From contig CBDCGL010000011.1 of assembly GCA_965216755.1 (NCBI GenBank), positions 2,336,001 to 2,400,000 on the forward strand: a DNA stretch of 64,000 nt. The letters run 5' to 3'. Positions within the stretch are counted from its first letter, which is position 1, and each line of letters starts with the position of its first letter. Positions 9,336 to 30,744 of the stretch are shown piece after piece. A model generated the notes under the pieces. It was not told where the DNA came from and ran no database searches. It saw only the letters and a program-made list of their open reading frames with translations. The translations under genes were made by a program, and so were the position numbers. Origin of the DNA: Alphaproteobacteria bacterium (GTDB taxonomy: Bacteria; Pseudomonadota; Alphaproteobacteria; UBA7887).

Positions 9336-10571
9336 ATGCAGCACGACCCTGGAGCGCTGAACCAGGAGCATTTCCTGGTCGAAACAGCCCGGCGGCTCAA
9401 AAATGGAGCGGCCGAACGCTGCGCTGTGTTTATCCATTTGTCCAAACTGCACCCCAGCCGCCGCCAACCGTGCCACTTGCGCATCGCCAGCGAAACGGTC
9501 AAGCCGCTCGCAGATAGACATCAAGGCCAGATCTTTGCGCTTGGTAATTTCGATCTGGTTCTGATTTTGCGCAACGCCCCACGGCAAGCGATCGACGAAA
9601 CGCTGACCAAATTGCGGCTTCTGTTTAGCCAAGATCCATTGGCTGACGGCATGCCAGGCGGTGAACCCGGGCAATTGGCGACAAGCTACGACCTCGCGCA
9701 TGACTATGGCGGTTTCGTGGCTACCGCCGAGCGCGCCTTCAAGAACGCGCAAAAAAGGGTTCACGAAGCCACGGGAACATCAGATCCGGCACAGGGTCCG
9801 ACGCCGCTCTCACTCAAAGCCCTTCCGCGCCTGGTCGACGCCATCGGCGGTGCCGATATCAGCGCCATGGTGCGCAGGCAATCGGTCTGCGTCGCCGTTG
9901 ACGCCAATATGCCGTCACCAGTCTTCCAGGAGGCACGGGTGCACATCCCGGAAATTGGGCGACAATTGATGCCGGGCGTGGATCTCGAAGCCGACCCTTG
10001 GCTCGGCCATTTGGTACGGCGCGCCGCAAACAACCGTCTGTTTGCATGGCTGATGCGGTTTGAGTTGTCGCCGGAGATGGATCCGATAAGCGTCGATTGC
10101 TCAACAGACTTGTTGCTCTCGGATGTATTCAGCAGCTTCGATACCTCGATCCCGGCCGCGACAAAAAAGAGAATATTGTTTGAACTCAGTAATTTAGATG
10201 CATTTGCGGACCTCGGCTCAATGATTTTCGCGCGCGAGATGCTGCACGCGCGCGGCTACCGCACTGTCTTGGATGGCCTGACACACAACACATTGCCCTA
10301 TATCGACCGCCATCGTTTGCCGTTTGATTTCCTCAAACTGCGATGGGGCCCGGATTTTGAGAACGATTTGCGCCAATCCGACTTTGATCTCCTCTCAGAG
10401 ACCATTGAAGCCGCCGGCACGTCGCGCGTTATCCTCTACGAATGCGAATCGGCCCGCAGCCTCGATTGCGGCCGCGAACTCGGCATCACCTTGTTCCAAG
10501 GTCCGTATATTGAATCCTTGCGGCGGCGGGCGCCGAAGGCCGCATCTCACAGCGTCGCGCATCCGGCATGA
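9336..10571 (+). CDS. Degenerate EAL-domain protein
   Basis: C-terminal EAL-fold remnants (ILFEL, GYRTVLDG, DFLKL, GITLFQG); no EAL or DDFGTG motif. Confidence 0.65.
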   Translation: MQHDPGALNQEHFLVETARRLKNGAAERCAVFIHLSKLHPSRRQPCHLRIASETVKPLADRHQGQIFALGNFDLVLILRNAPRQAIDETLTKLRLLFSQDPLADGMPGGEPGQLATSYDLAHDYGGFVATAERAFKNAQKRVHEATGTSDPAQGPTPLSLKALPRLVDAIGGADISAMVRRQSVCVAVDANMPSPVFQEARVHIPEIGRQLMPGVDLEADPWLGHLVRRAANNRLFAWLMRFELSPEMDPISVDCSTDLLLSDVFSSFDTSIPAATKKRILFELSNLDAFADLGSMIFAREMLHARGYRTVLDGLTHNTLPYIDRHRLPFDFLKLRWGPDFENDLRQSDFDLLSETIEAAGTSRVILYECESARSLDCGRELGITLFQGPYIESLRRRAPKAASHSVAHPA

Positions 10572-12022
10572 AAGACCACCGGATCACCGGCACGGTCACC
10601 GCCCGTATGGCGCCGCCCGTCGAGCGGGAAGATGTTCCCGAAATGCTCGATTGCCACGTCAAATGGCTCACCAACAAACGTGGCGGGGTCCGGGCTCGGT
10701 TCGGACCGACAAAGCTACACGGCATCGATTTGGCCGGCGCCGACCTGCGCAATGCAGACCTTGACCAAGCTGATCTCAGCCACGCCGATTTGACTGGCAC
10801 CGATTTGTCCTTCGCCAGTTTGGTCGGCACCAACTTGACCGGCGCGTCGCTGCGCCATGCGGTTTTGGCCAGTGCCAACCTGAACGGCGTCGACCTGGCC
10901 GACGCCGACCTCACCCGCGCCGACTTGACCGATGCAAATCTTCGCGATGGCGTCTTGGCTGGCGCCAATTTGTCGGACACCATTTCGCTTCTATCCACGG
11001 ATCTCAGCCGATCGAATTTGCGCGGCGCCACGCTTGTTGACGCCAAGCTGACCCATGCCGATTTCACCCACGCCGATTTGAGTCAATGCGATCTGACCCG
11101 CGCCAATTTGACCGGTGCCAGCCTCGACCATTGCAAGCTCGTCGACGCACGCCTGACGGCGGCGGATCTGAGCGGCGCCAGCTTGCGCGCCGCGAACCTG
11201 AACGGCGCCAGCCTTCGGAGCACAAAGCTCACCGGTACAAATCTGGACGGCGCGGAACTCGCGGGTGCGGATATCAGCGAACCGAAACCGGTGTCAAAAC
11301 GTGAACTTGCCAAAATCGTCGAGGCCCATGGCCGCTGGCTGGCCCAGCAAGGTGGCGCCCGCGCCGTGCTCGCCGGCCGTGACCTGAGCGGCCAGGAACT
11401 GACGGGCATCAATCTCAGCGGCGCGGACCTGTCTGACGCCAAGCTTGACGACGCGGATCTGCGCGGCGCGTTTCTGATCCTCAGCGACCTGCGCGGCGCC
11501 AATTTGAGCCGAACAAATCTGGAAAATGCCCATATCGGCGGCGCGCGTCTGAGCCACAGCTCGCTGCAGGCAGCCAAATTGGATGGCGCCGACCTCGGCC
11601 CGGTGGAACTGGTGGGCGAATTCGCCGATGCAGGCGCCGGCAAGCGCGCGGCCAATCTGAAGGAATGCGATCTCAGCGGCGTCAGCGCACTAGGGACGAA
11701 CTTTGCTGGCGCCAATCTGTCTTATGCGAAACTGACCCGCGCAGATTTGAACAACGCCAACTTGGGGCGAACAAACTTGGTCGGCACCAATCTGGATCAA
11801 GCCAAATTAGACGGCGCCGACCTCACGGCGGCCATAATGATCGGTGCCAATTTCGCCACCGCAAGCTTGGTCGGCGCGGTCCTTGATCGCGCCAATCTCA
11901 CCGGCGCCGACCTTGGCACCGCCAATTTTGAAGGCGCCAAAATCGCCAAAATCGTGCCTAGCGCAGCGGGCGACGATATCACCAAGAAAAACGCCCCACA
12001 GCGCGGCCGCTCGTCAGTCTAG
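10568..12022 (+). CDS. Pentapeptide repeat protein
   Basis: Extensive A(D/N)Lxx repeats in two modules, each led by H-x2-WL-x3/4-GG-x-RA. Confidence 0.92.
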   Translation: MKDHRITGTVTARMAPPVEREDVPEMLDCHVKWLTNKRGGVRARFGPTKLHGIDLAGADLRNADLDQADLSHADLTGTDLSFASLVGTNLTGASLRHAVLASANLNGVDLADADLTRADLTDANLRDGVLAGANLSDTISLLSTDLSRSNLRGATLVDAKLTHADFTHADLSQCDLTRANLTGASLDHCKLVDARLTAADLSGASLRAANLNGASLRSTKLTGTNLDGAELAGADISEPKPVSKRELAKIVEAHGRWLAQQGGARAVLAGRDLSGQELTGINLSGADLSDAKLDDADLRGAFLILSDLRGANLSRTNLENAHIGGARLSHSSLQAAKLDGADLGPVELVGEFADAGAGKRAANLKECDLSGVSALGTNFAGANLSYAKLTRADLNNANLGRTNLVGTNLDQAKLDGADLTAAIMIGANFATASLVGAVLDRANLTGADLGTANFEGAKIAKIVPSAAGDDITKKNAPQRGRSSV

Positions 12023-13932: not shown

Positions 13933-15102
13933 GTGGGCCGTCATATTGTTTCGCTGGCTGGGCAGATAGTCGCGGTGGTGGTTATCGGCATCGCGCTTTA
14001 CTATGGCTGGCAAAATCGCGCAGAACTGCCGCTGGTTGGTGGCTGGTTCGGCGATGCACAGACGGCCGCAGCAGACGGCCCGGCGCGCCCGCCGACGCCC
14101 GTTGACGTGGCGCTCGCCAAGGCGGGCTCGGTGATCGTGACCGTGGAGGCGGTCGGCACGGCCCGCGCCAACGAAGCTGTGACCGTTTCGTCTGAGGTCA
14201 TGGGCATCATTGCCGAGGTGCGCTTTGAAGAAGGCCAAGATGTCGAAGCCGGCGATGTCTTGATTGATTTTGAATCGAGCGTCGAGCGCGCCGAAGTCGA
14301 AGTCCGTCAGGCGGAAGTCGCGGTGCGAAGTGCTGAATTGCAGAACGCCCAGCAATTGTTCGACCGCGCGCGCCAACTGATCGAGACCCAAAATGTACCG
14401 ATGGCGCGCGTTGACGAGCTGGAGGCGGGATTGCAGGCCGCGAAGGCCGCCTTGCGTTCGTCGGAAGCGTCGCTAAAGGCGGCACGTGCGCGCCTGATCA
14501 AGCAACGGGTTGTGGCACCATTCGGCGGCCGTCTTGGCATTCGCCATGTCAGTCAGGGCGCCTTGATCGAACCGGGCGATCCAATCGTTACATTGGACGA
14601 CATCGCGACCGTCAAACTGGATTTCCAGATCCCCGAAAGAAATATAGCCAACATCCGCGTCGGCCAGGAAATCAGCGCGCAATCGCAGGCCTATCCCGGC
14701 AAGGTGTTCTTTGGCGTCGTAAAGTCCATCGATACCCGCGTCGACCCGGTGACCCGGGCCGTGACCGTGCGTGCCGGCATCGATAATCAAGACGACTTGC
14801 TGAAGCCGGGAATGTTCTTGTTGGTCGAGTTGGGTGTAGATACGCGACACGAGGCGGTACTGATCCCTGAAGAAGCGATTGTCGCCGATGGTACGGTCCG
14901 TTTCGTCTATGTGGTGGCCGATGGCGCCGCAATTCGAAAACCGGTGACCTTGGGCCAGCGCCAACCCGGCGAAGTCGAGGTTTTGTCTGGTGTCGCGGCC
15001 GGCGACCAAGTCATCATCGGCGGCATTCAAAAAGTGCGCGACGGTGCACCGGTGGCGGCGCGTACCGCGACCGCGGATCAAGAGGACGATTCGACAAGTT
15101 AG
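13933..15102 (+). CDS. RND efflux periplasmic adaptor (MFP)
   Basis: N-terminal TM, lipoyl-like halves, coiled-coil hairpin, APFGGRLG, LKPGMF. Confidence 0.93.
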   Translation: MGRHIVSLAGQIVAVVVIGIALYYGWQNRAELPLVGGWFGDAQTAAADGPARPPTPVDVALAKAGSVIVTVEAVGTARANEAVTVSSEVMGIIAEVRFEEGQDVEAGDVLIDFESSVERAEVEVRQAEVAVRSAELQNAQQLFDRARQLIETQNVPMARVDELEAGLQAAKAALRSSEASLKAARARLIKQRVVAPFGGRLGIRHVSQGALIEPGDPIVTLDDIATVKLDFQIPERNIANIRVGQEISAQSQAYPGKVFFGVVKSIDTRVDPVTRAVTVRAGIDNQDDLLKPGMFLLVELGVDTRHEAVLIPEEAIVADGTVRFVYVVADGAAIRKPVTLGQRQPGEVEVLSGVAAGDQVIIGGIQKVRDGAPVAARTATADQEDDSTS

Positions 15103-15117
15103 TGTCTTTAGAATTCC

Positions 15118-15200
15118 AGTGACAGTTTACTAAATACACTGCACTTCGTATGGCCCTTCTCAAGAACCGCTTGATATTGCGTATTTAGTAAACTGTCACC
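15118..15200. repeat. Palindromic intergenic element, copy 2
   Basis: (A)GTGACAGTTTACTAAATAC (15118-15137) and GTATTTAGTAAACTGTCACC (15181-15200); same termini as 1107-1188 but a different core. Confidence 0.9.
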
Positions 15201-15229
15201 AGATTGGATTTTGAGGTAAGATTGGCACC

Positions 15230-18200
15230 ATGGTGCTCTCGGACGTATCGATCAAGCGGCCCGTCTTTGCGACGGTTTTGAGTCTGATCTTGGTGATTTT
15301 TGGCCTGTTCGCGTTTCAACGGCTGGCTATTCGCGAATATCCGGACATCGATCCGCCGACCGTATCCGTCGTCACCCTGTACAAGGGGGCGTCGGCGCAG
15401 ATTATCGAAACTCAAGTAACTCAGATCCTTGAGGAAGCGGTCTCGGGCATCGAAGGCGTCAAGCAAATTACGTCGAAAAGCCGCGAAGAGCGGTCGCAAG
15501 TCGATATCGAATTTGTCCTTAATCGTGATGTTGACAGTGCCGCCAACGATGTTCGCGACAAAGTGGCGCGGGTGGTCGGCGAACTGCCGTTGGACGTGGA
15601 AACGCCAATCGTGTCCAAGGTCCAAGCCGATGCCAGCCCGATGTTGTGGATCGCGCTGACCAGCGATGAATGGAACGCCATAGAGCTCAGCGATTACGCT
15701 GATCGGTTTTTGCTCGATCGGTTTTCCATCGTGCCGGGCGTCGCCGCCGCGATCATAGGCGGCGAACGAAAACCGGCCATGCGCATATGGCTGGACCGCC
15801 GGGCGATGGCGGCGCGCGAAATCACCGTCGGCGATATTGAAGCCGCGTTGAGAGCGCAAAATGTCGAGCTGCCCTCGGGACGTATCGAATCGAACCTACG
15901 CGAATTCACGGTGCGCACTGAATCCGGCCTGGTCACGGCGGATGAATTTCGCAATGTGGTGGTCAAGGAAAAGGATGGCTTCCTGCTGCGGCTTGGCGAG
16001 GTGGCGGAGGTCGAGTACGGCACCGAGGAACTGCGCTATGAAGTGCGTGCCAACGGCGAAGCCGCCATCGGTATCGGTATCGCCAAGCAATCGAAAGCCA
16101 ACGAACTGGAGATTGCTCAGGGCATTCACGCGGAAATCGCAAAGGTACGCCCGTCCCTGCCACGCCAGGTCAAAATGGAAGTGGCCTACGACCGGTCGCG
16201 GTTCGTGTCGGCGTCAATCGACGAGGTGTTCCACGCCTTGGGCATTGCATTGTGCCTGGTGATCGCGGTCATCTTTCTGTTCTTGCGCGGCTTGCGCGCA
16301 ACATTGATACCCGCTGTCGCGATCCCGGTGTCGTTGACCGCCTCGTTCATGGTGCTCGCGGCGATGGGCTACTCGATCAATGTGCTGACCTTGCTGGCCT
16401 ATGTGCTGGCGGTCGGCCTGGTCGTCGACGATGCCATCGTTGTATTGGAAAACATCCATCGTCGGATCGAGCTTGGCGAGCCCGTGTTGCTGGCCGCGGT
16501 TCGCGGCGCGCGGCAAATCGGCTTCGCGGTGATCGCGACGACTTTGGCCCTGGTCGCGGTGTTTATCCCGATTTCTTTGATGACCGGCAATACGGGACGA
16601 CTGTTTTCCGAATTCGGCGTTTCCGTTGCCGCCGCGGTAATTTTCTCAGGGCTGGTGGCGCTCACCCTGACGCCGATGATGTGTTCCAAGCTGCTACGCC
16701 CGGCGGAGAACGAAGGCGCCTTCTACAAGGTGACGGAATATTTCTTTGTTGCGCTCAACCGTGGTTATGGCTGGCTTCTCGACCGCGCCTTGTCGCTGCC
16801 GGTGATTATGATCGCGCTCGCCGTCGGCGTGTCGCTGATCGCCAAAGTCTTCTACGACAATATCAATCAGGAGTTTGCGCCGACCGAAGATCGGGGCGTG
16901 TTCCTGGTCGTGCTGAGCGCGCCAGAAGGGGCGACGATCGACTACACCCGCGCCTATCTGATCGAAGCCGAGCAAAAGATGCAGTATTTGCTCGATAGCG
17001 AAGAAGCCACGACCATTTTTGGCGTTGTCGCCCCGGGGTTAAGCCGGCCGAGCCCGGTCAATTTCGCCATCGCCTTTGTCGTTTTGTCGCCATGGGAAGA
17101 GCGCGAGCGCAAACAACAACAGATCGTCGCCGAGTTGTTCCCGCAACTGCTTGGCATTCCAGGCGCCAACGTGTTTGCCATCAACCCGCCCAGTCTGAAC
17201 CAACCGGGCCGCAAGACGCCGGTGCAATTTGTCCTTGGCGGTCCCAGCTATGACATGCTGCGCGACTGGAGTCAGACGATTCTGGAAGGCGCCAGGGAAA
17301 ACCCGAAGCTGCTGAGCCCGGACTCCGATTTCAAGGAAACCAAACCCGAACTTAAGGTTGATATCGATCGCGACCGTGCCGCCGATCTGGGCGTTTCAGT
17401 CCAGAAAATTGGACGGGCCCTGGAAGCGATGCTCGGGTCGCGTGTTGTCGGGACCTTGAACGACCGCGGCGTACAATATGACGTAATCTTGCAGGCCATC
17501 GTGACCGATCGTGCAACGCCACGCGATCTGACCAACATTTATGAGCGTTCAGAGACCAGCGGCCGGCTGGTACCGCTGAGCAATTTGGTCAACGTGACCG
17601 AAACCGCCGGGCCAAAGGAACTCAATCGCGTCGACCGCATGCGCGCCGTCACCATTTCCGCGTCACTTGCGCCCGGACATACCTTGGGCGAAGCGCTGGC
17701 TTATTTGGACAATCTGGCAAAAACCCGCCTGCCGGCCGAAGCGCGCATCAGCTATGGCGGTCAATCGCGAGAATTTCGCGATTCCTCCAGCTCGTTGGCG
17801 CTGACATTCCTGTTGGCGGTGGTCATTATTTTCTTGGTCTTGGGCGCCCAATTTGAAAGCTTTGTGCACCCGTTCATCATTCTCTTGTCGGTGCCGTTGG
17901 CAGTGACCGGGGCGCTCGGCACCTTGCTGCTGACCGGGATCACCCTCAACATCTACAGCCAAATCGGTATGGTGATGCTGATCGGATTGGTGGCGAAGAA
18001 TGCAATTCTGATTGTCGAATTTGCAAACCAATTGCGCGAGCAAGGATTCTCGGTACGCGAAGCGGTGCACAAATCAGCGGTGGCGCGATTGCGGCCGATT
18101 TTGATGACGACGATCGCCACCGTCTTTGGCGCCGTGCCAATCGCCCTTGCGACCGGCGCCGGCGCCGAGAGCCGGTCGTCGATCGGTTGGGTGATCATCG

Positions 18201-18367
18201 GTGGCGTGACCTTTTCGACCGTGTTGTCGCTGTTCGTGGTGCCGGTGCTCTATATGCTTCTGGCGCGATTCACCAAGCCATCCAGTTTTGTCGCCGACCG
18301 CTTGCGGACCCTGGAATCCGAACACGGTACCGCGCCCGGGGAAGCCGCGCCGGCACCAGCAGAGTGA
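15230..18367 (+). CDS. RND efflux permease (AcrB/MdtB family)
   Basis: 1045 aa; IKRPVFA, GLVVDDAIVVLEN, KNAILIVEFA, RLRPILMTT. Confidence 0.96.
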   Translation: MVLSDVSIKRPVFATVLSLILVIFGLFAFQRLAIREYPDIDPPTVSVVTLYKGASAQIIETQVTQILEEAVSGIEGVKQITSKSREERSQVDIEFVLNRDVDSAANDVRDKVARVVGELPLDVETPIVSKVQADASPMLWIALTSDEWNAIELSDYADRFLLDRFSIVPGVAAAIIGGERKPAMRIWLDRRAMAAREITVGDIEAALRAQNVELPSGRIESNLREFTVRTESGLVTADEFRNVVVKEKDGFLLRLGEVAEVEYGTEELRYEVRANGEAAIGIGIAKQSKANELEIAQGIHAEIAKVRPSLPRQVKMEVAYDRSRFVSASIDEVFHALGIALCLVIAVIFLFLRGLRATLIPAVAIPVSLTASFMVLAAMGYSINVLTLLAYVLAVGLVVDDAIVVLENIHRRIELGEPVLLAAVRGARQIGFAVIATTLALVAVFIPISLMTGNTGRLFSEFGVSVAAAVIFSGLVALTLTPMMCSKLLRPAENEGAFYKVTEYFFVALNRGYGWLLDRALSLPVIMIALAVGVSLIAKVFYDNINQEFAPTEDRGVFLVVLSAPEGATIDYTRAYLIEAEQKMQYLLDSEEATTIFGVVAPGLSRPSPVNFAIAFVVLSPWEERERKQQQIVAELFPQLLGIPGANVFAINPPSLNQPGRKTPVQFVLGGPSYDMLRDWSQTILEGARENPKLLSPDSDFKETKPELKVDIDRDRAADLGVSVQKIGRALEAMLGSRVVGTLNDRGVQYDVILQAIVTDRATPRDLTNIYERSETSGRLVPLSNLVNVTETAGPKELNRVDRMRAVTISASLAPGHTLGEALAYLDNLAKTRLPAEARISYGGQSREFRDSSSSLALTFLLAVVIIFLVLGAQFESFVHPFIILLSVPLAVTGALGTLLLTGITLNIYSQIGMVMLIGLVAKNAILIVEFANQLREQGFSVREAVHKSAVARLRPILMTTIATVFGAVPIALATGAGAESRSSIGWVIIGGVTFSTVLSLFVVPVLYMLLARFTKPSSFVADRLRTLESEHGTAPGEAAPAPAE

Positions 18368-24618: not shown

Positions 24619-25911
24619 GTGACCCTGGCGATCGTCGGCATCGGTGCATTGCTGCTCTTGATTCTGCTGCGCGTGCCGATCGCTTTCGCCATGGCGCTGG
24701 TTGGATTCATTGGCATTGCCGGCCTGATCAACAACTCGGCCGCATTGGCCATGGTCGGTCAAGTCACTTTCGATACGGGCCTGTCCTACGAACTGTCGGT
24801 GGTCCCCCTGTTCGTGCTAATGGGCAATTTCGTCGCCCGCGCCGGATTGTCCGACGAATTGTACGAGGCTTCGCACGCCTGGCTTGGCCACCATCGTGGC
24901 GGCCTGGCGATGGCGACCATCGTCGCGTGTGGCGGTTTCAGCGCGATTTGTGGGTCAAGTTTGGCGACCGCGGCAACGATGGCCCGGGTCGCCATGCCGC
25001 CGATGCGCCGCTACGGCTACGCCGATTCGCTGGCAGCCGGCGCGATCGCGGCCGGCGGCACGCTGGGCATTTTGATACCGCCAAGTGTGGTGTTGGTGCT
25101 CTACGGCGTCATGACCGGACAAGATATCGGTCTGCTGTTCGCCGCAGGTCTGATTCCGGGACTGATCGGCATCATTTGCTATGTCGGCGCCGTTGTCGTG
25201 GTCACGCGTCGACACCCTGCTGCCGGGCCGCGCGCCGACCCACAGGCGTTGGCGGCGCGCTGGCGTGCCTTGCGCGCTGTGTGGGGGGTATTGGTCCTGT
25301 TTGTCGTGGTGATGGGCGGGATCTATGGCGGTGTCTTCACACCAACCGAAGCGGCCGGCATCGGGGCCGCGGGCGGGTTCGTGTTTGCCCTGGCGAGGCG
25401 TCGCCTGAACTGGCGCAGCTTGGGTGAGATCCTGGTGCAATCTGCCGAAACCACGGCGATGTTGTTTTTCGTTCTGATCGGCGCGTTGATTTTTGCGGCG
25501 TTCGTCAACCTGGCCGGGCTGCCGAATGCGTTGGCCGACTGGACCGGTGGGCTGGCATTGCCGCCACTCGCGATCATTGCGATTATCTTATTGATTTATC
25601 TGGCACTTGGATGCGTATTGGAAAGCCTGTCCATGGTCCTGCTGACCGTGCCTGTGCTCTATCCCTTGGTGGCCGGCCTCGGCTACGATTTGGTGTGGTT
25701 TGGCATCATCGTCGTTGTCGCGACCGAAATCAGCTTGATCACGCCGCCGGTCGGCTTGAACGTTTTTGTTCTCAAGGACGCGTTGGGTGATGTCTCGACC
25801 GCCACCATTTTTCGCGGCGTCGTGCCGTTTTGGTGTGCGGATATCATACGCTTGGCGCTGATTGTCACAGTCCCTCCCATCGCGTTGTGGCTGCCGCAAT
25901 GGCTCGGCTGA
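24619..25911 (+). CDS. TRAP large permease DctM
   Basis: GSSLATAAT, GGTLGILIPPS, FTPTEAA, ITPPVGLN. Confidence 0.95.
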   Translation: MTLAIVGIGALLLLILLRVPIAFAMALVGFIGIAGLINNSAALAMVGQVTFDTGLSYELSVVPLFVLMGNFVARAGLSDELYEASHAWLGHHRGGLAMATIVACGGFSAICGSSLATAATMARVAMPPMRRYGYADSLAAGAIAAGGTLGILIPPSVVLVLYGVMTGQDIGLLFAAGLIPGLIGIICYVGAVVVVTRRHPAAGPRADPQALAARWRALRAVWGVLVLFVVVMGGIYGGVFTPTEAAGIGAAGGFVFALARRRLNWRSLGEILVQSAETTAMLFFVLIGALIFAAFVNLAGLPNALADWTGGLALPPLAIIAIILLIYLALGCVLESLSMVLLTVPVLYPLVAGLGYDLVWFGIIVVVATEISLITPPVGLNVFVLKDALGDVSTATIFRGVVPFWCADIIRLALIVTVPPIALWLPQWLG

Positions 25912-25983
25912 CGCACCCACACGGCCATCATCTGCTATAACCGCGCCAAAATCCCGCACATCGCATGGGCCAGGAGGATATGA

Positions 25984-26382
25984 ATGTCGTTTCAGAATGT
26001 GCGCAGCGGACTGATCGCCTGTTCGCTGTTCGGCCTGTGTCTGGCCACGCCCGCCGGCGCACAGAGCGATGGCGACACGGCCGCAGGTGAAAAGGCTTTT
26101 AAGACGCTCTGCGGCCTTTGCCACACGGTTGAAAGCGGCGGCCGCAACAAGGTCGGCCCGAATCTGCACGGTTTGATCGGTGCGACCGCAGGCCAATTGG
26201 AAGGTTACGCCTATTCCGCGAGCCATCGCGAATCCGGTTTCGTCTTCGACGAGGCCGGCTTGGACACGTATATCGGAAACCCAAAGGGTACCATCGACGG
26301 AACCAAAAAATCCATTGCTGGCATCGTTGATGCGCAAAAGCGCGCAAATATCATTGCCTTTTTGCGGCAAGCGACTCAGTAG
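25984..26382 (+). CDS. Class I cytochrome c (c2-like) lacking the axial Met
   Basis: Signal peptide, CGLCH heme motif, KVGPNLHG, YAYS; GTKKSIAG where GTKMxFxG is canonical. Confidence 0.88.
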   Translation: MSFQNVRSGLIACSLFGLCLATPAGAQSDGDTAAGEKAFKTLCGLCHTVESGGRNKVGPNLHGLIGATAGQLEGYAYSASHRESGFVFDEAGLDTYIGNPKGTIDGTKKSIAGIVDAQKRANIIAFLRQATQ

Positions 26383-26444: not shown

Positions 26445-27593
26445 ATGCCCATGCATGCGGACTTCTTGGTGATTGGCGCCGGCATCGCCGGCGTTTCCGC
26501 CGCCGACACACTCGCGGCCCGCGGCCGTGTGATCGTGCTCGAACGTGAGTCGCAACCCGCCTATCACACGACTGGCCGTTCGGCGTCGTACTTCACGCTG
26601 AACTACGGCAATGACCTGATTCGCGCCCTGACCAAGGCCAGTCAGTCATTCCTGACCACGCCACCGGACGGTTTTAGCGCGCATCCGTTGATGACCCCGC
26701 TCGGCGCCCTGACCATCGCCCGCGCTGATCAACTGTCCAGTTTCGAACAAAACCTTTCTGACGCACAGAAGCTGGTGCCGGAAATCAGCCCCATTACGGT
26801 GACAGAAGCGCGCGCCATGGTCCCTGCGTTGCGGGACGACACTGTCGCCGCCGTTCATTACGAGCCGGATGCGCAATATATGGATGTGGACTTGATCCAC
26901 GGCGGCTTCCTGCGGCGCATGCGGGCGCGTGGCGGTGAGTTGGTGTGCGACGCGGAGGTAAAGGCGCTGCGGCGCGACGGTGGAACGTGGCACGTCGCAA
27001 CCGCGGCCGGTACGTACGACGCGCCGATTGTCGTCAATGCCGCCGGCGCCTGGGCGGATGAAATCGCCGTGCACGCGGGTTTGGCGCCGCTTGGCTTGGT
27101 GCCAAAGCGCCGCACTGTAATTCTCTTTGCAGCGCCGTCCGGAACAACAGTCGCAAGTTGGCCCTTGGTGCTGGATGTCGATGAGGAATTCTACTTCCGA
27201 GGAGATGCCGGCAAGGTGTTGGCCAGCCCGGCCGACGCGACACCGTCGCCCCCTTGCGACAGTCAGCCAGAGGATTTGGACATTGCCGTGACGGTCGATC
27301 GCATCGAAACGGCGACCACCATGACGGTTCCCAGAATTGAACACAAATGGGCCGGATTGCGCAGCTTCTATTCCGACAATACGCCTGTCGTGGGGACGGA
27401 CCCACATACCGAAGGTTTCGTGTGGCTGGCCGGTCAAGGCGGCTATGGCATCATGACATCACCCGCCATGGCCGAGGCCGCATGCGCGTGCGCAACGGGT
27501 GATGCCTGGCCCGAGAGTTTGGCGGCCGTCGGCGTGACCATGGCCGATCTCGCCGCCGATCGTGACACGTTGCGATCGGTCACACGTGACTAG
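26445..27593 (+). CDS. FAD-dependent D-amino acid dehydrogenase (DauA-like)
   Basis: GAGIAG, ERESQPAYHTTGRSA, VNAAGAWAD, WAGLRSF, GQGGYGI. Confidence 0.85.
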   Translation: MPMHADFLVIGAGIAGVSAADTLAARGRVIVLERESQPAYHTTGRSASYFTLNYGNDLIRALTKASQSFLTTPPDGFSAHPLMTPLGALTIARADQLSSFEQNLSDAQKLVPEISPITVTEARAMVPALRDDTVAAVHYEPDAQYMDVDLIHGGFLRRMRARGGELVCDAEVKALRRDGGTWHVATAAGTYDAPIVVNAAGAWADEIAVHAGLAPLGLVPKRRTVILFAAPSGTTVASWPLVLDVDEEFYFRGDAGKVLASPADATPSPPCDSQPEDLDIAVTVDRIETATTMTVPRIEHKWAGLRSFYSDNTPVVGTDPHTEGFVWLAGQGGYGIMTSPAMAEAACACATGDAWPESLAAVGVTMADLAADRDTLRSVTRD

Positions 27594-28327
27594 GGGTATG
27601 CGCAGCGCTGCGCCGAAACAACGACGAATCCATCGGTATCCGCCGGTGTCATGACGAAACGAAACTCGCGGTCCCCAAGAACAACCGAATGACGCAGCGG
27701 CAAGGCGCCTTCCGCGCGGGTGACCTCGCCATCGATCACGGTGAACTCCGCGGTTACGGGCCCACCTGGATCGAAGCGCGCTTCGGCTTGACCGGCATCG
27801 CTGGTCGCCGGGAGGCCCTGTCCCGTCACCGCGATGCGATTGTCGGCGAATGTCACCACATGGTTTTCGCCGCTTGTGTAGGGGGTCTGCACAATGAATC
27901 GCCGACGAACGATCTCTTCGTCACACAACGCCTGATCGGCGGCATTTGCAATGACGAAACTAAGCCGATCGGCCGAGACTCCGTCTTTTAGGCGCGCAAT
28001 AACCGCAGCCACGACATCCTTCGCGACGCCACGCGGCACCTCTTTAGCGTAGCGTTTCTCGGCGTCGGCTCTACCTTCCTCGGCCGCCAGGCGGGCCACG
28101 ATGGCGCGATCCGCTTCCTCGCGCAAGCGCGTGTTTTCGACTCGCAACTGTGCAATTTGTTCGCGCAGGTCTTGATTGTCGGTACCTGAGCGCTGTTGGC
28201 CAAGGCTATAAGACCAATAAGAGATCGCCCCGATCAGAATCAGAAAGATGACAGTTTTGAAGAACCCGGCGCGTGCCCGGCGACGCCGTCGACCATCACG
28301 CCCGCCCAACTCCATGCCTAAGCTCAT
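27590..28327 (-). CDS. Hypothetical membrane-anchored coiled-coil protein
   Basis: Arg-rich N-terminus, one TM, coiled coil, beta-rich C-terminus with two Cys; co-oriented downstream of the MotB-like gene. Confidence 0.7.
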   Translation of the reverse strand: MSLGMELGGRDGRRRRRARAGFFKTVIFLILIGAISYWSYSLGQQRSGTDNQDLREQIAQLRVENTRLREEADRAIVARLAAEEGRADAEKRYAKEVPRGVAKDVVAAVIARLKDGVSADRLSFVIANAADQALCDEEIVRRRFIVQTPYTSGENHVVTFADNRIAVTGQGLPATSDAGQAEARFDPGGPVTAEFTVIDGEVTRAEGALPLRHSVVLGDREFRFVMTPADTDGFVVVSAQRCAYP

Positions 28328-28358: not shown

Positions 28359-29510
28359 CTACCGCTCGGTTAACTTGAACTCGATTCGTCTATTGCGCCG
28401 AAATGCATCATCGCTGTCGGCGCGATCAATCGGTTGAAATTCACCGAATCCGGCGGCCGCCAACTTTTCGGGGGGCAAACCTTGGCGTATCAAGAACTTG
28501 GCGACAGCGACAGCGCGCGCGGTTGACAGCTCCCAGTTCGACGGAAATAGCGTCGTCCGGATAGGGCGCCGATCGGTATGGCCATCGATGCGCAGCACCC
28601 ACTCGATATCGTCGGGAATGTCGTCGGCGATCTCCAACAGCAGATCCGCGAGTTTGCTCATTTGCTGCTGACCGGCCAAGCCCAGCTCAGCCGAGCCGGA
28701 ATCAAACAGCACGCCCGACTGCAAAACAAAGCGATCGCCGCGAATGCTCACCTCGCTACGGTTGGCCAACACCTCGCGCAGACGCCCAAAAAACTCGGAT
28801 CTGTATCGCGACAATTCCTCGACCTTGTTGGCCAGCGCAACGTTGAGCCGTTGCCCCAAATTGGCGATTTGAATTTGCTGCTCTTCGATCTTGGAATCAC
28901 GGGCATCCAACGCATCCTGCACAGCTGCCAGCTGAATTCGCAGCGATGCGATTTGCTGGTTCAAGAGGGCAACCTGGCGCCGTGCCGCGGATGAAATTTC
29001 GCGCTCGCGGTCCAATTGCTCGCGCACCGACACCGCCTTGTCGCGTGCTTCGCCGGAGACGGCCCGTTCGGCTTCAAGCATGGCCATGGCGGCAGCCAAT
29101 TGAAGCCGCAATTCCTCTTGATCTTCCTCCAAGGACGACACATCCAGGCCGGCAGCTTCCAAACTGCGCTGTAGACCATCGGTTTCACCCAGCGCGATCG
29201 CCAGTTGACTGGCCAGACTATCGCGCTCAGCGGTTGAGGCTTGGAGTTGCGCGGCCAACTGATTGATGTCTCCACGCATCTGTATGTTGGCACGTTTTTC
29301 GAGCGCCAGCAGATCGGCCAATTCCGCGACTTGCCGATTGAGCCGTTCCAACGCTTCGTCGCGACCGGACAACGCGCGACTCAAGAAGAACTCCGAGATC
29401 ACGAAGACGACCAGCAAAAAAATCAGCACCAGTAGCAATGTCGACAGGGCATCGACAAATCCCGGCCAGATATCGGCACTGCGACCGAGCCGACGACTTC
29501 TTGCCATCAT
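28359..29510 (-). CDS. MotB-like protein with long coiled coil and OmpA peptidoglycan-binding domain
   Basis: WPGFVDALSTLL TM with conserved Asp; GHTD, NWELSTARA, NRRIE. Confidence 0.88.
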   Translation of the reverse strand: MMARSRRLGRSADIWPGFVDALSTLLLVLIFLLVVFVISEFFLSRALSGRDEALERLNRQVAELADLLALEKRANIQMRGDINQLAAQLQASTAERDSLASQLAIALGETDGLQRSLEAAGLDVSSLEEDQEELRLQLAAAMAMLEAERAVSGEARDKAVSVREQLDREREISSAARRQVALLNQQIASLRIQLAAVQDALDARDSKIEEQQIQIANLGQRLNVALANKVEELSRYRSEFFGRLREVLANRSEVSIRGDRFVLQSGVLFDSGSAELGLAGQQQMSKLADLLLEIADDIPDDIEWVLRIDGHTDRRPIRTTLFPSNWELSTARAVAVAKFLIRQGLPPEKLAAAGFGEFQPIDRADSDDAFRRNRRIEFKLTER

Positions 29511-29544
29511 GGCGCTGACAGCAGCTTTGGTGTCAAACGTTGGT

Positions 29545-30744
29545 TCATGAACCGAGACCGGCGGCGCCACCATGGCTGTCGGCCGAGCCCGGTGGCAGGC
29601 CCGGATCACGATAACCCGCCGCCACCGCAATCGTCCTCGCCAAAAGCTTGATTTCGCTACGCAACTCGGAAATCACTTGGTTGCGACCGTTCACGGATTC
29701 TTCCAACAAGCGCATCATGTAAACGTCCAAATTACGGATATGACTGCGCGTTGCTTCGTCGATTGCCGTCCCTTCGCGATCACCGGCGTCGGCCAAGCGC
29801 GCCAAGACCGGTTTCATATCAGCTTGACCCTCGACGAGCTTGACCATCAGGTTCTGTTCGGCACGCATCTGATCGGTCAATGTCGCCAGGCGTTCGGTCA
29901 GCTGGACGATATTCGAACTTGCCAGGCGCCGCTCGTCTTCGCCCCGCGACATGGTTCGTTGCAGGCTTTCCAAGCTCTCGGCCGTTTGCTCCAATAGAGC
30001 TTGCACATAGACCGGGACCGACTGGTCGCCCTCGACAACACCGCCGCCGCCGCCGGTCAATCGTGTCAGGCCCGACAACCACTCTTCCAGGTCGTTGTAA
30101 AAGTTATTCTGCGCCTGACCCGCCTGCAAATCCAGAAAGCCTAGCACCAATGAGCCAGCCAATCCAAACAGCGACGAGGAAAACGCCGTTCCCATCCCGC
30201 CTAGCGGATCTTCCAAGCCAGCCTTTAGCGCGGCAAACGTCTGCACCATATCGCCATCGCCGATCGACAAGCCGGCGATGACATTGCCGACCGAACCAAC
30301 CGTGTCGAGCAGTCCCCAAAAGGTGCCCAACAGACCCAAGAAAATCAGCAAGCCAATCAAATAACGCGAAATTTCGCGCGTCTCCTCGAGCCGTGACCCT
30401 ATCCCATCGAGCAACGAACGCATGGCCAAGGCCGACAGCATGACTTTGCCCTTGCGATCCGCCAACATGCGCGCCATCGGCGACAGCAGGCGCGGCACAC
30501 CTTGCGTGGTAATCCCCGGTTGATTGGTGCGAAACGTCTCGATCCAACGCACTTCCGGGCTGAGGCCGATCACTTGCCGGAAGCAATAGACAATGCCCAA
30601 TACCAGGACGCCCAGAATGAGGCCGTTGAGCGGCGGGTTGGCTTGAAAGGCCTTGATCAACTGATCGAGCAGCACGACGGAGACACCGCACGCCAACACC
30701 AGAAAGATGATCATACGGGTCAGATATCGGCGCGGCTGGGTCAT
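29545..30744 (-). CDS. MotA/TolQ/ExbB-family proton channel protein with C-terminal coiled-coil tail
   Basis: LGLLGTFWGL and TAFSSSLFGL motifs; long helical tail. Confidence 0.85.
   Translation of the reverse strand: MTQPRRYLTRMIIFLVLACGVSVVLLDQLIKAFQANPPLNGLILGVLVLGIVYCFRQVIGLSPEVRWIETFRTNQPGITTQGVPRLLSPMARMLADRKGKVMLSALAMRSLLDGIGSRLEETREISRYLIGLLIFLGLLGTFWGLLDTVGSVGNVIAGLSIGDGDMVQTFAALKAGLEDPLGGMGTAFSSSLFGLAGSLVLGFLDLQAGQAQNNFYNDLEEWLSGLTRLTGGGGGVVEGDQSVPVYVQALLEQTAESLESLQRTMSRGEDERRLASSNIVQLTERLATLTDQMRAEQNLMVKLVEGQADMKPVLARLADAGDREGTAIDEATRSHIRNLDVYMMRLLEESVNGRNQVISELRSEIKLLARTIAVAAGYRDPGLPPGSADSHGGAAGLGS

Follow-up and report, generated by a model that had tools for sequence, protein, structure and literature searches.

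A c2-type cytochrome c with lysine at the axial methionine position in an alphaproteobacterium, and the recurrence of this substitution in soil bacteria and fungi

We analysed a 64,000-nucleotide stretch of an alphaproteobacterial genome (contig CBDCGL010000011.1, positions 2,336,001 to 2,400,000 of the forward strand; hereafter the window), in which one gene encodes a cytochrome c of the c2/mitochondrial type with lysine (Lys109) in place of the axial methionine. Judging from its sequence and from analogy with known systems, the product (the query) is probably a functional periplasmic class I cytochrome c whose haem would be low-spin, ligated by His47 and Lys109, and of a potential well below that of c2. 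Lysine at this site recurs in at least three lineages: the query's own group, a group from soil metagenomes, and paralogues in the fungal family Mortierellaceae. The features of the gene are as follows, in window coordinates.

25972..25978, forward strand: ribosome-binding site AGGAGGA, spaced 5 nt from the ATG (direct sequence reading).
25984..26382, forward strand: coding sequence of the cytochrome c precursor (P0001), 132 aa and a TAG stop (list of open reading frames, translation).
25984..26061, forward strand: putative Sec signal peptide, residues 1-26, cut after AGA, with Gln27 as mature N-terminus (inspection of the translation).
26110..26124, forward strand: haem-attachment motif CGLCH (Cys43, Cys46, proximal His47), invariant in all alignments made.
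26224..26226, forward strand: His81 (CAT), equivalent of position 52 in mitochondrial cytochrome c.
26245..26247, forward strand: Phe88 (TTC), replacing the near-invariant Trp59.
26296..26325, forward strand: distal-loop motif DGTKKSIAGI (residues 105-114), in place of PGTKMxFxG.
26308..26310, forward strand: Lys109 codon AAA at the axial-Met (Met80) position (sequence, alignment to solved cytochromes c).

The reading frame is intact from the ATG start through 132 codons to the TAG stop, and its translation contains the distal segment NPKGTIDGTKKSIAGI, with AAA as codon 109. A preliminary description made from the DNA letters had called the frame, the ribosome-binding site, the CxxCH motif and the signal peptide intact; the first three were re-read directly, and the last was confirmed by inspection. 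The N-terminus, MSFQNVRSGLIACSLFGLCLATPAGA followed by Gln, was judged by eye rather than by a predictor to be a Sec-type signal peptide. The structure model described below has a low predicted local distance difference test score (pLDDT, 55-66) across residues 1-30. We also considered a lipoprotein reading through LIAC (residues 10-13) and set it aside: the hydrophobic core runs beyond LIAC, and Cys is absent there in both N-termini that were checked from the group of relatives introduced below as group A (P0002 and P0271). The mature domain has a pI near 6.8 and contains no Met at all, as had been claimed. The proportion of G and C at third codon positions (GC3) was 0.67 for the cytochrome gene and 0.65-0.76 for neighbouring genes.

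The family assignment is clear. Pfam PF00034 (Cytochrom_C) matched at E 1.9e-08, its score of 35.9 bits exceeding the cut-off of 21.3, and cytochromes c from the Protein Data Bank (PDB) matched as well, the best being 2yk3_A at E 3e-28. Residues 30-131 aligned without gaps to residues 1-102 of human cytochrome c (1j3s_A; offset 29), which upheld the preliminary reading of a cytochrome c of the c2/mitochondrial type, intact and with Lys at the axial-Met site. In this alignment Lys109 corresponds to Met80, Phe88 to Trp59, His81 to Asn52, Asp105 to Pro76, Ile111 to Phe82 and Tyr96 to the conserved Tyr67. All four PDB targets printed have 'gtkm' where the query has 'gtkk'. An AlphaFold2 model, built from 42 sequences and containing no haem, had a pLDDT of 85.8, with 83-98 over the mature domain and 91-96 over the loop region (residues 91-120). 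It superimposed on human cytochrome c 3nwv_A with a root-mean-square deviation of 0.9 Å over 102 columns (TM 0.95).

The protein therefore belongs with class I c-type cytochromes by its single CXXCH, its PF00034 score, its fold, its export signal (by inspection) and the presence in the host of CcmE (PF03100, 123 bits), a component of the System I haem-attachment pathway. It departs from them at the axial position, where Lys109 replaces the Met of the GTKM type found in 329 of 339 fetched single-domain relatives. It also departs in the pair Trp59 and Phe82, for which it has Phe88 and Ile111; among 76 Met-type relatives, Trp59 is found in 75 and Phe82 in 71. The replacement of the conserved Trp by Phe had been noticed earlier, and it falls exactly in the Trp59 column. 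The equivalog model for CycA (NCBIfam NF043008) gave 82 bits, below its cut-off of 240. Asp at the Pro76 position (26296-26298) is peculiar to the query: it was found in 1 of 120 proteins, and Pro stands there in the other five proteins of group A and in all soil proteins. Of the 'extra His' residues pointed out in the preliminary description, the one in NLHG is an ordinary equivalent of His33, present in 58 of the 76 Met-type relatives, whereas His81 is indeed unusual and occurs in 0 of 329 Met-type proteins. We take Arg38, Trp59 and Asn52 to surround haem propionate-7 and a buried water beside Met80; the titles of PDB entries 1crg, 1crh, 1cri and 1irw are consistent with a place for residue 52 in that buried-water network.

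Lys109 is neither a sequencing error nor a one-off. Logan contigs from two samples of one study showed 0 differences across the gene, at a depth of up to 13.4; this evidence consists of assembled contigs, possibly including the source sample, and not of raw reads. Since the contigs of the two samples are identical and homologues share the Lys, we regard the residue as real. The codon AAA is two base changes from ATG, as had been stated, and a single miscall is thereby excluded; a change from Met to Lys can nevertheless be made in one step (ATG to AAG), which leaves a single mutation as a conceivable origin.

The genome (5.0 Mb, 99.8% complete) also has ordinary Met-bearing cytochromes: a canonical c2 of 136 aa (KNKMAFPG), which lies 52 kb upstream of the window (L002 1462-1872) and is 43% identical to the query, and a dihaem cytochrome c that is anchored in the membrane and has the GTKM motif twice. 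The Lys-type protein is best explained as an extra paralogue that does not replace the respiratory carrier.

We searched for relatives that share the lysine. In the first search 159 proteins passed E 1e-5, and among the best 120 of these, which were listed, the axial column held Met in 117 and Lys in 3. A profile search and a representative library added more; the best 150 matches in the library were nearly all multi-domain, and P0230 alone was informative. The query and five metagenomic proteins (P0002, P0271, P0273, P0230 and P0275; 42-53% identical to the query) form what we call group A. All six have GTKKSI[SA]GI, and in mitochondrial numbering they have Phe (five) or Leu (one) at position 59. 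His at position 52 is found in four of them, the other two having Pro or Phe. Ile at position 82 is present in all six, and also in 13 of 13 aligned soil proteins, against the Phe of the Met-type relatives. Compared with the same 76 relatives, Arg38 is mostly lost (Ala in 4/6). Pro71 is changed to Tyr in five proteins, the query not among them, and several surface lysines are gone (position 13 is Leu in 6/6, position 87 Asp in 5/6). Taken together, the changes in group A look like a remodelled propionate and distal pocket.

The preliminary description had asked whether GTKK defines a clade, and it does; the Lys is kept among proteins 40-60% identical to one another. In a careful maximum-likelihood tree from which the twelve motif-region columns (query residues 104-115) had been removed, group A was supported at 99/85, and group A together with P0279 at 98/84. 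P0279, a metagenomic protein of 120 aa, reads PGTLKGFSG, with Leu at 79 and Lys at 80, and keeps both His52 and Trp59; the constant residue is therefore Lys80 and not Lys79. In species-representative genomes, scanned with N-terminal-half patterns (137 stretches in 47 loci, best identity 46%; the scan may omit the records of the window's own genome), no member of group A was seen, and the loci L002-L082 that fit the motif pattern all have Met. Nor was a Lys-type cytochrome found in the 40 relatives searched, where the best matches were of the Met type and at most 45% identical. The protein atlas returned generic cytochrome c clusters only.

Class I domains lacking the axial Met in other ways also came to light. 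Four dihaem c2-like proteins of about 238 aa (P0147, P0172, P0272 and P0274) have Ala at the axial-Met site of their second domain (e.g. KGTKARFPG), and P0264 has Ser (PGTKSEFPG).

The lysine is accompanied by other residues. Co-variation was counted in the 339 fetched single-domain proteins (Met 329, Lys 10), a biased sample in that all were found with Lys-type queries. The soil proteins, which have Asn52 and Ser81, lie outside this count. His at position 52 occurred in 7/10 Lys-type and 0/329 Met-type proteins, and Ser at position 81 in 8/10 and 28/329, respectively. Among the ten Lys-type proteins, P0422 stands out by an odd, Cys-rich loop and may be the product of a faulty gene model. The His52/Lys80 pattern spans bacteria and fungi, though the kin among these proteins are not independent.

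A second bacterial group came from soil metagenomes. It comprises 18 loci (L083-L100) with PGTKKSISGI, 41-47% identical to the query; the scan pattern contained GTKKSI, so that Lys is present in the matches by construction. These proteins keep Trp59 and Asn52 (Asn52 in 13 of 13 aligned) and have two extra Cys, in GRKCG and NKDCAF, which could form a disulphide (e.g. L088 1600-1941, L091 7548-7874). The ratio of non-synonymous to synonymous substitution rates (dN/dS) had a median of 0.127 and a range of 0.056-0.40 (66 pairs from 12 equal-length genes), and the soil Lys-type protein is therefore maintained by purifying selection. The conserved neighbours of the soil genes are not those of the window gene: they are a small cytochrome c of PF13442, transcribed divergently, an FAA-hydrolase-like gene and an alpha/beta hydrolase. 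With a soil-group protein as query, a class-wide sample of 401 genomes yielded only Met-bearing relatives, at most 51% identical.

When seven of these Met-bearing relatives were added to the tree, the soil group joined them across a branch supported at 100/99, apart from group A, and the Lys label required three changes. A single bacterial Lys clade was 20.3 log-likelihood units worse but was not rejected by the approximately unbiased (AU) test (p 0.133); with the earlier set of rows, lacking the seven Met relatives, the tree that held the two groups together was the better one (p 0.678). Independent origins of Lys in the two bacterial groups are thus favoured, not proven. The codons speak against full independence. 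Where amino acids agree between the query and the soil proteins, codon identity was 0.69 in the motif (n=104) and 0.42 elsewhere (n=397). For Lys80 the window and 18/18 soil loci use AAA, although many soil pairs have synonymous distances (dS) of 0.6-1.7. For the adjacent Lys79, by contrast, 11 soil loci have AAA and 7 have AAG, and AAG serves for all five other Lys residues of the query. Transfer of the motif segment, or constraint at the nucleotide level, could be the source of the shared motif codons.

The fungal Lys-type lineage is clearly separate from the bacterial ones. It comprises proteins of Mortierellaceae, named 'iso-1-cytochrome c' in their source: P0019 of Podila epigama and P0434 of Linnemannia zychae, the latter from a cluster of 4 sequences. 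Both have PGTKKSF, with Lys80, Ser81 and His at 52, and both are placed within eukaryotic cytochrome c. L. zychae also has a Met-type protein (P0387). The fungal proteins would be a eukaryotic cytochrome c paralogue with Lys for Met.

We propose the following mechanism for the window protein. The precursor would be exported, and the Ccm system would attach haem c at Cys43 and Cys46, with His47 as proximal ligand. The distal loop would then present the amine of Lys109, in place of a methionine sulphur, as sixth ligand. The resulting His/Lys haem should be low-spin, with a potential some hundreds of millivolts under that of the organism's ordinary c2, and Lys109 should be the more readily displaced distal ligand, above all in the ferrous state. 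Ser110, Ile111 (for Phe82), His81, Phe88 (for Trp59) and Ala67 (for Arg38) may be co-adaptations of the distal loop and propionate pocket to the lysine: Ser110 and Ile111 could give space for its longer side chain, and His81 could serve as hydrogen-bond or proton partner, taking up or relaying the proton that Lys sheds on binding. The physiological role may be low-potential electron transfer or small-ligand chemistry.

Statements on papers cited below by PMC number refer to the excerpts of those papers that were available. A close precedent is the engineered Met100Lys c-550 of Paracoccus (Thiobacillus) versutus (Ubbink et al. 1994, as cited in PMC6879331, PMC8840924), which is likewise of the c2 type, has Lys at the axial-Met site and is reported to be lysine-histidine ligated; its midpoint was shifted by -329 mV (PMC8840924). 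A natural His/Lys haem, haem 2 of Allochromatium vinosum TsdA, lies at -129/-171 mV (PMC6879331), and because of these two precedents a much lower potential is to be expected here. The c-550 variant is a laboratory point mutant without Ser81, Ile82, His52, Phe59 or Ala38, whereas the window protein is natural, belongs to a conserved clade and carries the co-adapted changes.

Other known systems share some of these properties. The canonical c2/c-550 proteins, such as the genome's own paralogue, have the same fold, length, CXXCH position and signal peptide as the window protein but carry the Met in KNKMAFPG, whereas the window protein is without Met80, Trp59 and Phe82. In the alkaline conformer of mitochondrial cytochrome c, which together with the c-550 variant is the nearest parallel to the proposed mechanism, the ligand is Lys73 or Lys79. 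In this conformer, too, a Lys stands in for Met80 as sixth ligand within the same fold (PMC8840924), but there it is a loop neighbour that displaces the Met after a pH-driven refolding. The window protein has its Lys at 80 itself and no Met to return to; its lysine-ligated state would be constitutive at neutral pH. In TsdA, the alternative Met ligand is the residue neighbouring the ligand Lys. TsdA resembles the window protein in having a natural, low-potential His/Lys haem of the c type; unlike it, TsdA is a dihaem enzyme whose haem can switch from Lys to Met (PMC6879331). The window protein is of the stand-alone monohaem carrier type and offers no such Met. Cytochrome c-2 of Plasmodium falciparum is a natural divergent protein of the mitochondrial type, dispensable for respiration and devoid of stable ferric His/Met ligation, but it keeps Met80, has a high-spin open site and shows no replacement by Lys (PMC10175771). 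The truncated haemoglobin THB1 of Chlamydomonas also has a natural His/Lys haem with a displaceable lysine (PMC8840924, PMC6879331); it is a globin by fold, however, carries b-type haem and has no sequence relationship to the window protein.

The most serious alternative, which we regard as rather unlikely, is that the lysine is labile or unbound and the haem binds ligands. The haem would then be five-coordinate, bound to water or hydroxide, or only weakly bound by Lys, and Lys109 and His81 would act as distal polar residues while the protein bound NO, O2, CO or peroxide, or worked as a catalyst, rather than carrying electrons. The few His/Lys haems known are described as sharing a labile lysine, and the purpose of the ligation in TsdA as open (PMC6879331). 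Plasmodium cytochrome c-2 has a high-spin haem that takes a single axial ligand from the protein, and it binds imidazole as well as peroxide (PMC10175771). The query's own Asp for Pro76 could loosen the ligand loop. The surface lysines lost from group A at positions 13 and 87 presumably belong to the usual docking ring, and their loss would suit a protein that is not an electron carrier. Against this reading, the engineered Met-to-Lys c-550, which has no other adaptation, is described as lysine-histidine ligated (Ubbink 1994, as cited in PMC6879331, PMC8840924), the loop has native geometry in the model, at the high pLDDT given above, and the strict conservation of Lys, rather than of any polar residue, suits a role as ligand.

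Ligation by His81 or His62, giving a low-potential bis-His haem with Lys109 as a bystander, appears improbable. The preliminary description had listed bis-His coordination among its options. The exclusive occurrence of His81 in Lys-type proteins would fit it, and an introduced His71 of yeast cytochrome c does ligate ferric haem (PMC3210782). As a property of the family, however, it founders on conservation: His81 is missing in 2/6 proteins of group A and in 13/13 aligned soil proteins, as noted above, and His62 is replaced by Tyr in 2/6 and by Asn in 13/13, respectively. Position 52 of cytochrome c lies on the helix below the haem. Ligation from there would need refolding, and the predicted model is no different from native cytochrome c.

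Just as improbable, in our view, is decay: the gene would be a paralogue without function, or on the way to losing it, whose axial ligand disappeared once the gene had been duplicated or transferred. The long terminal branch of the query, the lack of an orthologue in the 40 relatives searched and the position of the gene between genes that are adjacent in relatives would all agree with decay. However, the frame, ribosome-binding site, signal peptide and haem site are intact, the structure model is confident, and a 9-residue motif has been kept among proteins that are merely 42-53% identical. The soil group has a dN/dS of about 0.13, and the same set of substitutions recurs in fungi. The last alternative, that the true codon is ATG and was turned into AAA by a fault of sequencing or assembly, could appeal to the support by contigs instead of raw reads but is practically negligible in view of the agreement between two samples, the two base changes needed, and the Lys and same surrounding changes in homologues from other sources.

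Several points weigh against a His47/Lys109-ligated cytochrome as we propose it. Coordination by Lys109 is read from alignment position, as it is for every Lys-type member. Lys was also the criterion by which these proteins were chosen, so that its invariance among them does not test the proposal independently. The terminal branch of the query is long (0.57-0.65), and its Asp at Pro76 is unique. The role of His81, which part of group A lacks and which Asn replaces in the soil group, is uncertain. The AU test leaves a single bacterial origin unrejected, and motif codon identity between the query and the soil loci is raised. Finally, no homologue from group A was visible in its own genomic context, in a single metagenome scan without their contigs.

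The genes on either side of the cytochrome gene are the following.

24619..25911, forward strand: TRAP transporter large permease DctM, the upstream neighbour (Pfam PF06808, E 1e-94).
26445..27593, forward strand: DAO-family FAD-dependent oxidoreductase without signal peptide, the downstream neighbour (Pfam PF01266, E 1.5e-50).

They belong to a same-strand run of an alpha/beta hydrolase, an acyl-CoA dehydrogenase-like gene, an acyl-CoA ligase, TRAP DctPQM, the cytochrome c and the FAD oxidoreductase. Of 22 genomes from the same family, 15 have an orthologue of the oxidoreductase (55-63% identity). In two relatives (G002 and G009) no more than about 12 bp separate the dctM orthologue from the oxidoreductase gene, in a third (G004) the two are direct neighbours, and five others have an RND pump gene ahead of the oxidoreductase. 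We considered a function based on an operon with the TRAP transporter, the CoA ligase and the FAD oxidoreductase and rejected it: dctM abuts the oxidoreductase gene without a cytochrome in relatives, and the oxidoreductase has no export signal. The neighbours therefore say little on the function of the cytochrome.

The cytochrome gene fills a slot of roughly 530 bp that is empty in the relatives searched. Gain of the gene in this lineage is the simplest explanation; loss elsewhere could also account for the pattern. As to insertion scars, no notable direct or inverted repeats flank the gene. A promoter scan gave 4 promoter-like sites against 2.1 expected, none of them in the 72-nt upstream gap, and a terminator scan found no forward-strand terminator after the cytochrome gene.

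Some further observations concern the surroundings. Downstream of the FAD oxidoreductase, on the reverse strand, lie a gene for a protein of 245 aa that matched neither Pfam nor NCBIfam (window 27593-28327) and one for an OmpA/MotB-like 'peptidoglycan-binding protein' (window 28362-29630); the block of these three genes is conserved in the family relatives whose loci were fetched. Both genomes of genus g2 have an oxidoreductase orthologue with one in-frame TAA (G001:C35:105956-107080 and G008:C1:13183-14304), perhaps a sign of a pseudogene common to both, of a split gene or of a feature of the assembly. Elsewhere on the forward strand, the window encodes a 484-aa pentapeptide-repeat protein with 12 Pfam repeats, whose HetL- and Qnr-like matches fall below cut-off (10568-12019), and an RND efflux pair of adaptor and permease (13933-18364).

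In the full-text literature searched, which excluded subscription-only papers, we came across no report of a class I cytochrome c that naturally has Lys in place of the axial Met. The natural Lys-coordinated haems that a 2021 review lists, in the excerpt available, are alkaline cytochrome c and THB1 only (PMC8840924). As far as sequences tell, the Lys-type group is rare and conserved, and it is apparently undescribed. As a tentative possibility, on which we would not insist, the exchange of Met for Lys may be a recurrent invention: at least three lineages would have fixed Lys80 and Ser81, often with His52 and, in bacteria, Ile82, and would thereby have made an 'alkaline-like' His/Lys haem permanent at neutral pH. 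The proton partner of a redox- or ligand-gated Lys switch would then be His52, and the protein would have a non-respiratory job, either low-potential electron delivery or NO, O2 or peroxide chemistry.

The His/Met pair of cytochrome c is among the most conserved metal sites known, and its lysine ligation has for decades been studied solely as a pH-induced, mutant or apoptosis-related state. If our reading is true, a natural Lys-for-Met family would give this chemistry a physiological setting, with built-in second-sphere changes, and the same cell would supply a Met-bearing paralogue to compare it with. Such a family would be a ready-made natural model of the alkaline conformer and would yield predictions on what stabilizes the Lys-Fe bond at neutral pH (Ser81, Ile82 and His52). 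It would also point to an unannotated class of low-potential or ligand-reactive cytochromes, periplasmic in bacteria and mitochondrial in fungi, which databases label merely as 'cytochrome c'.

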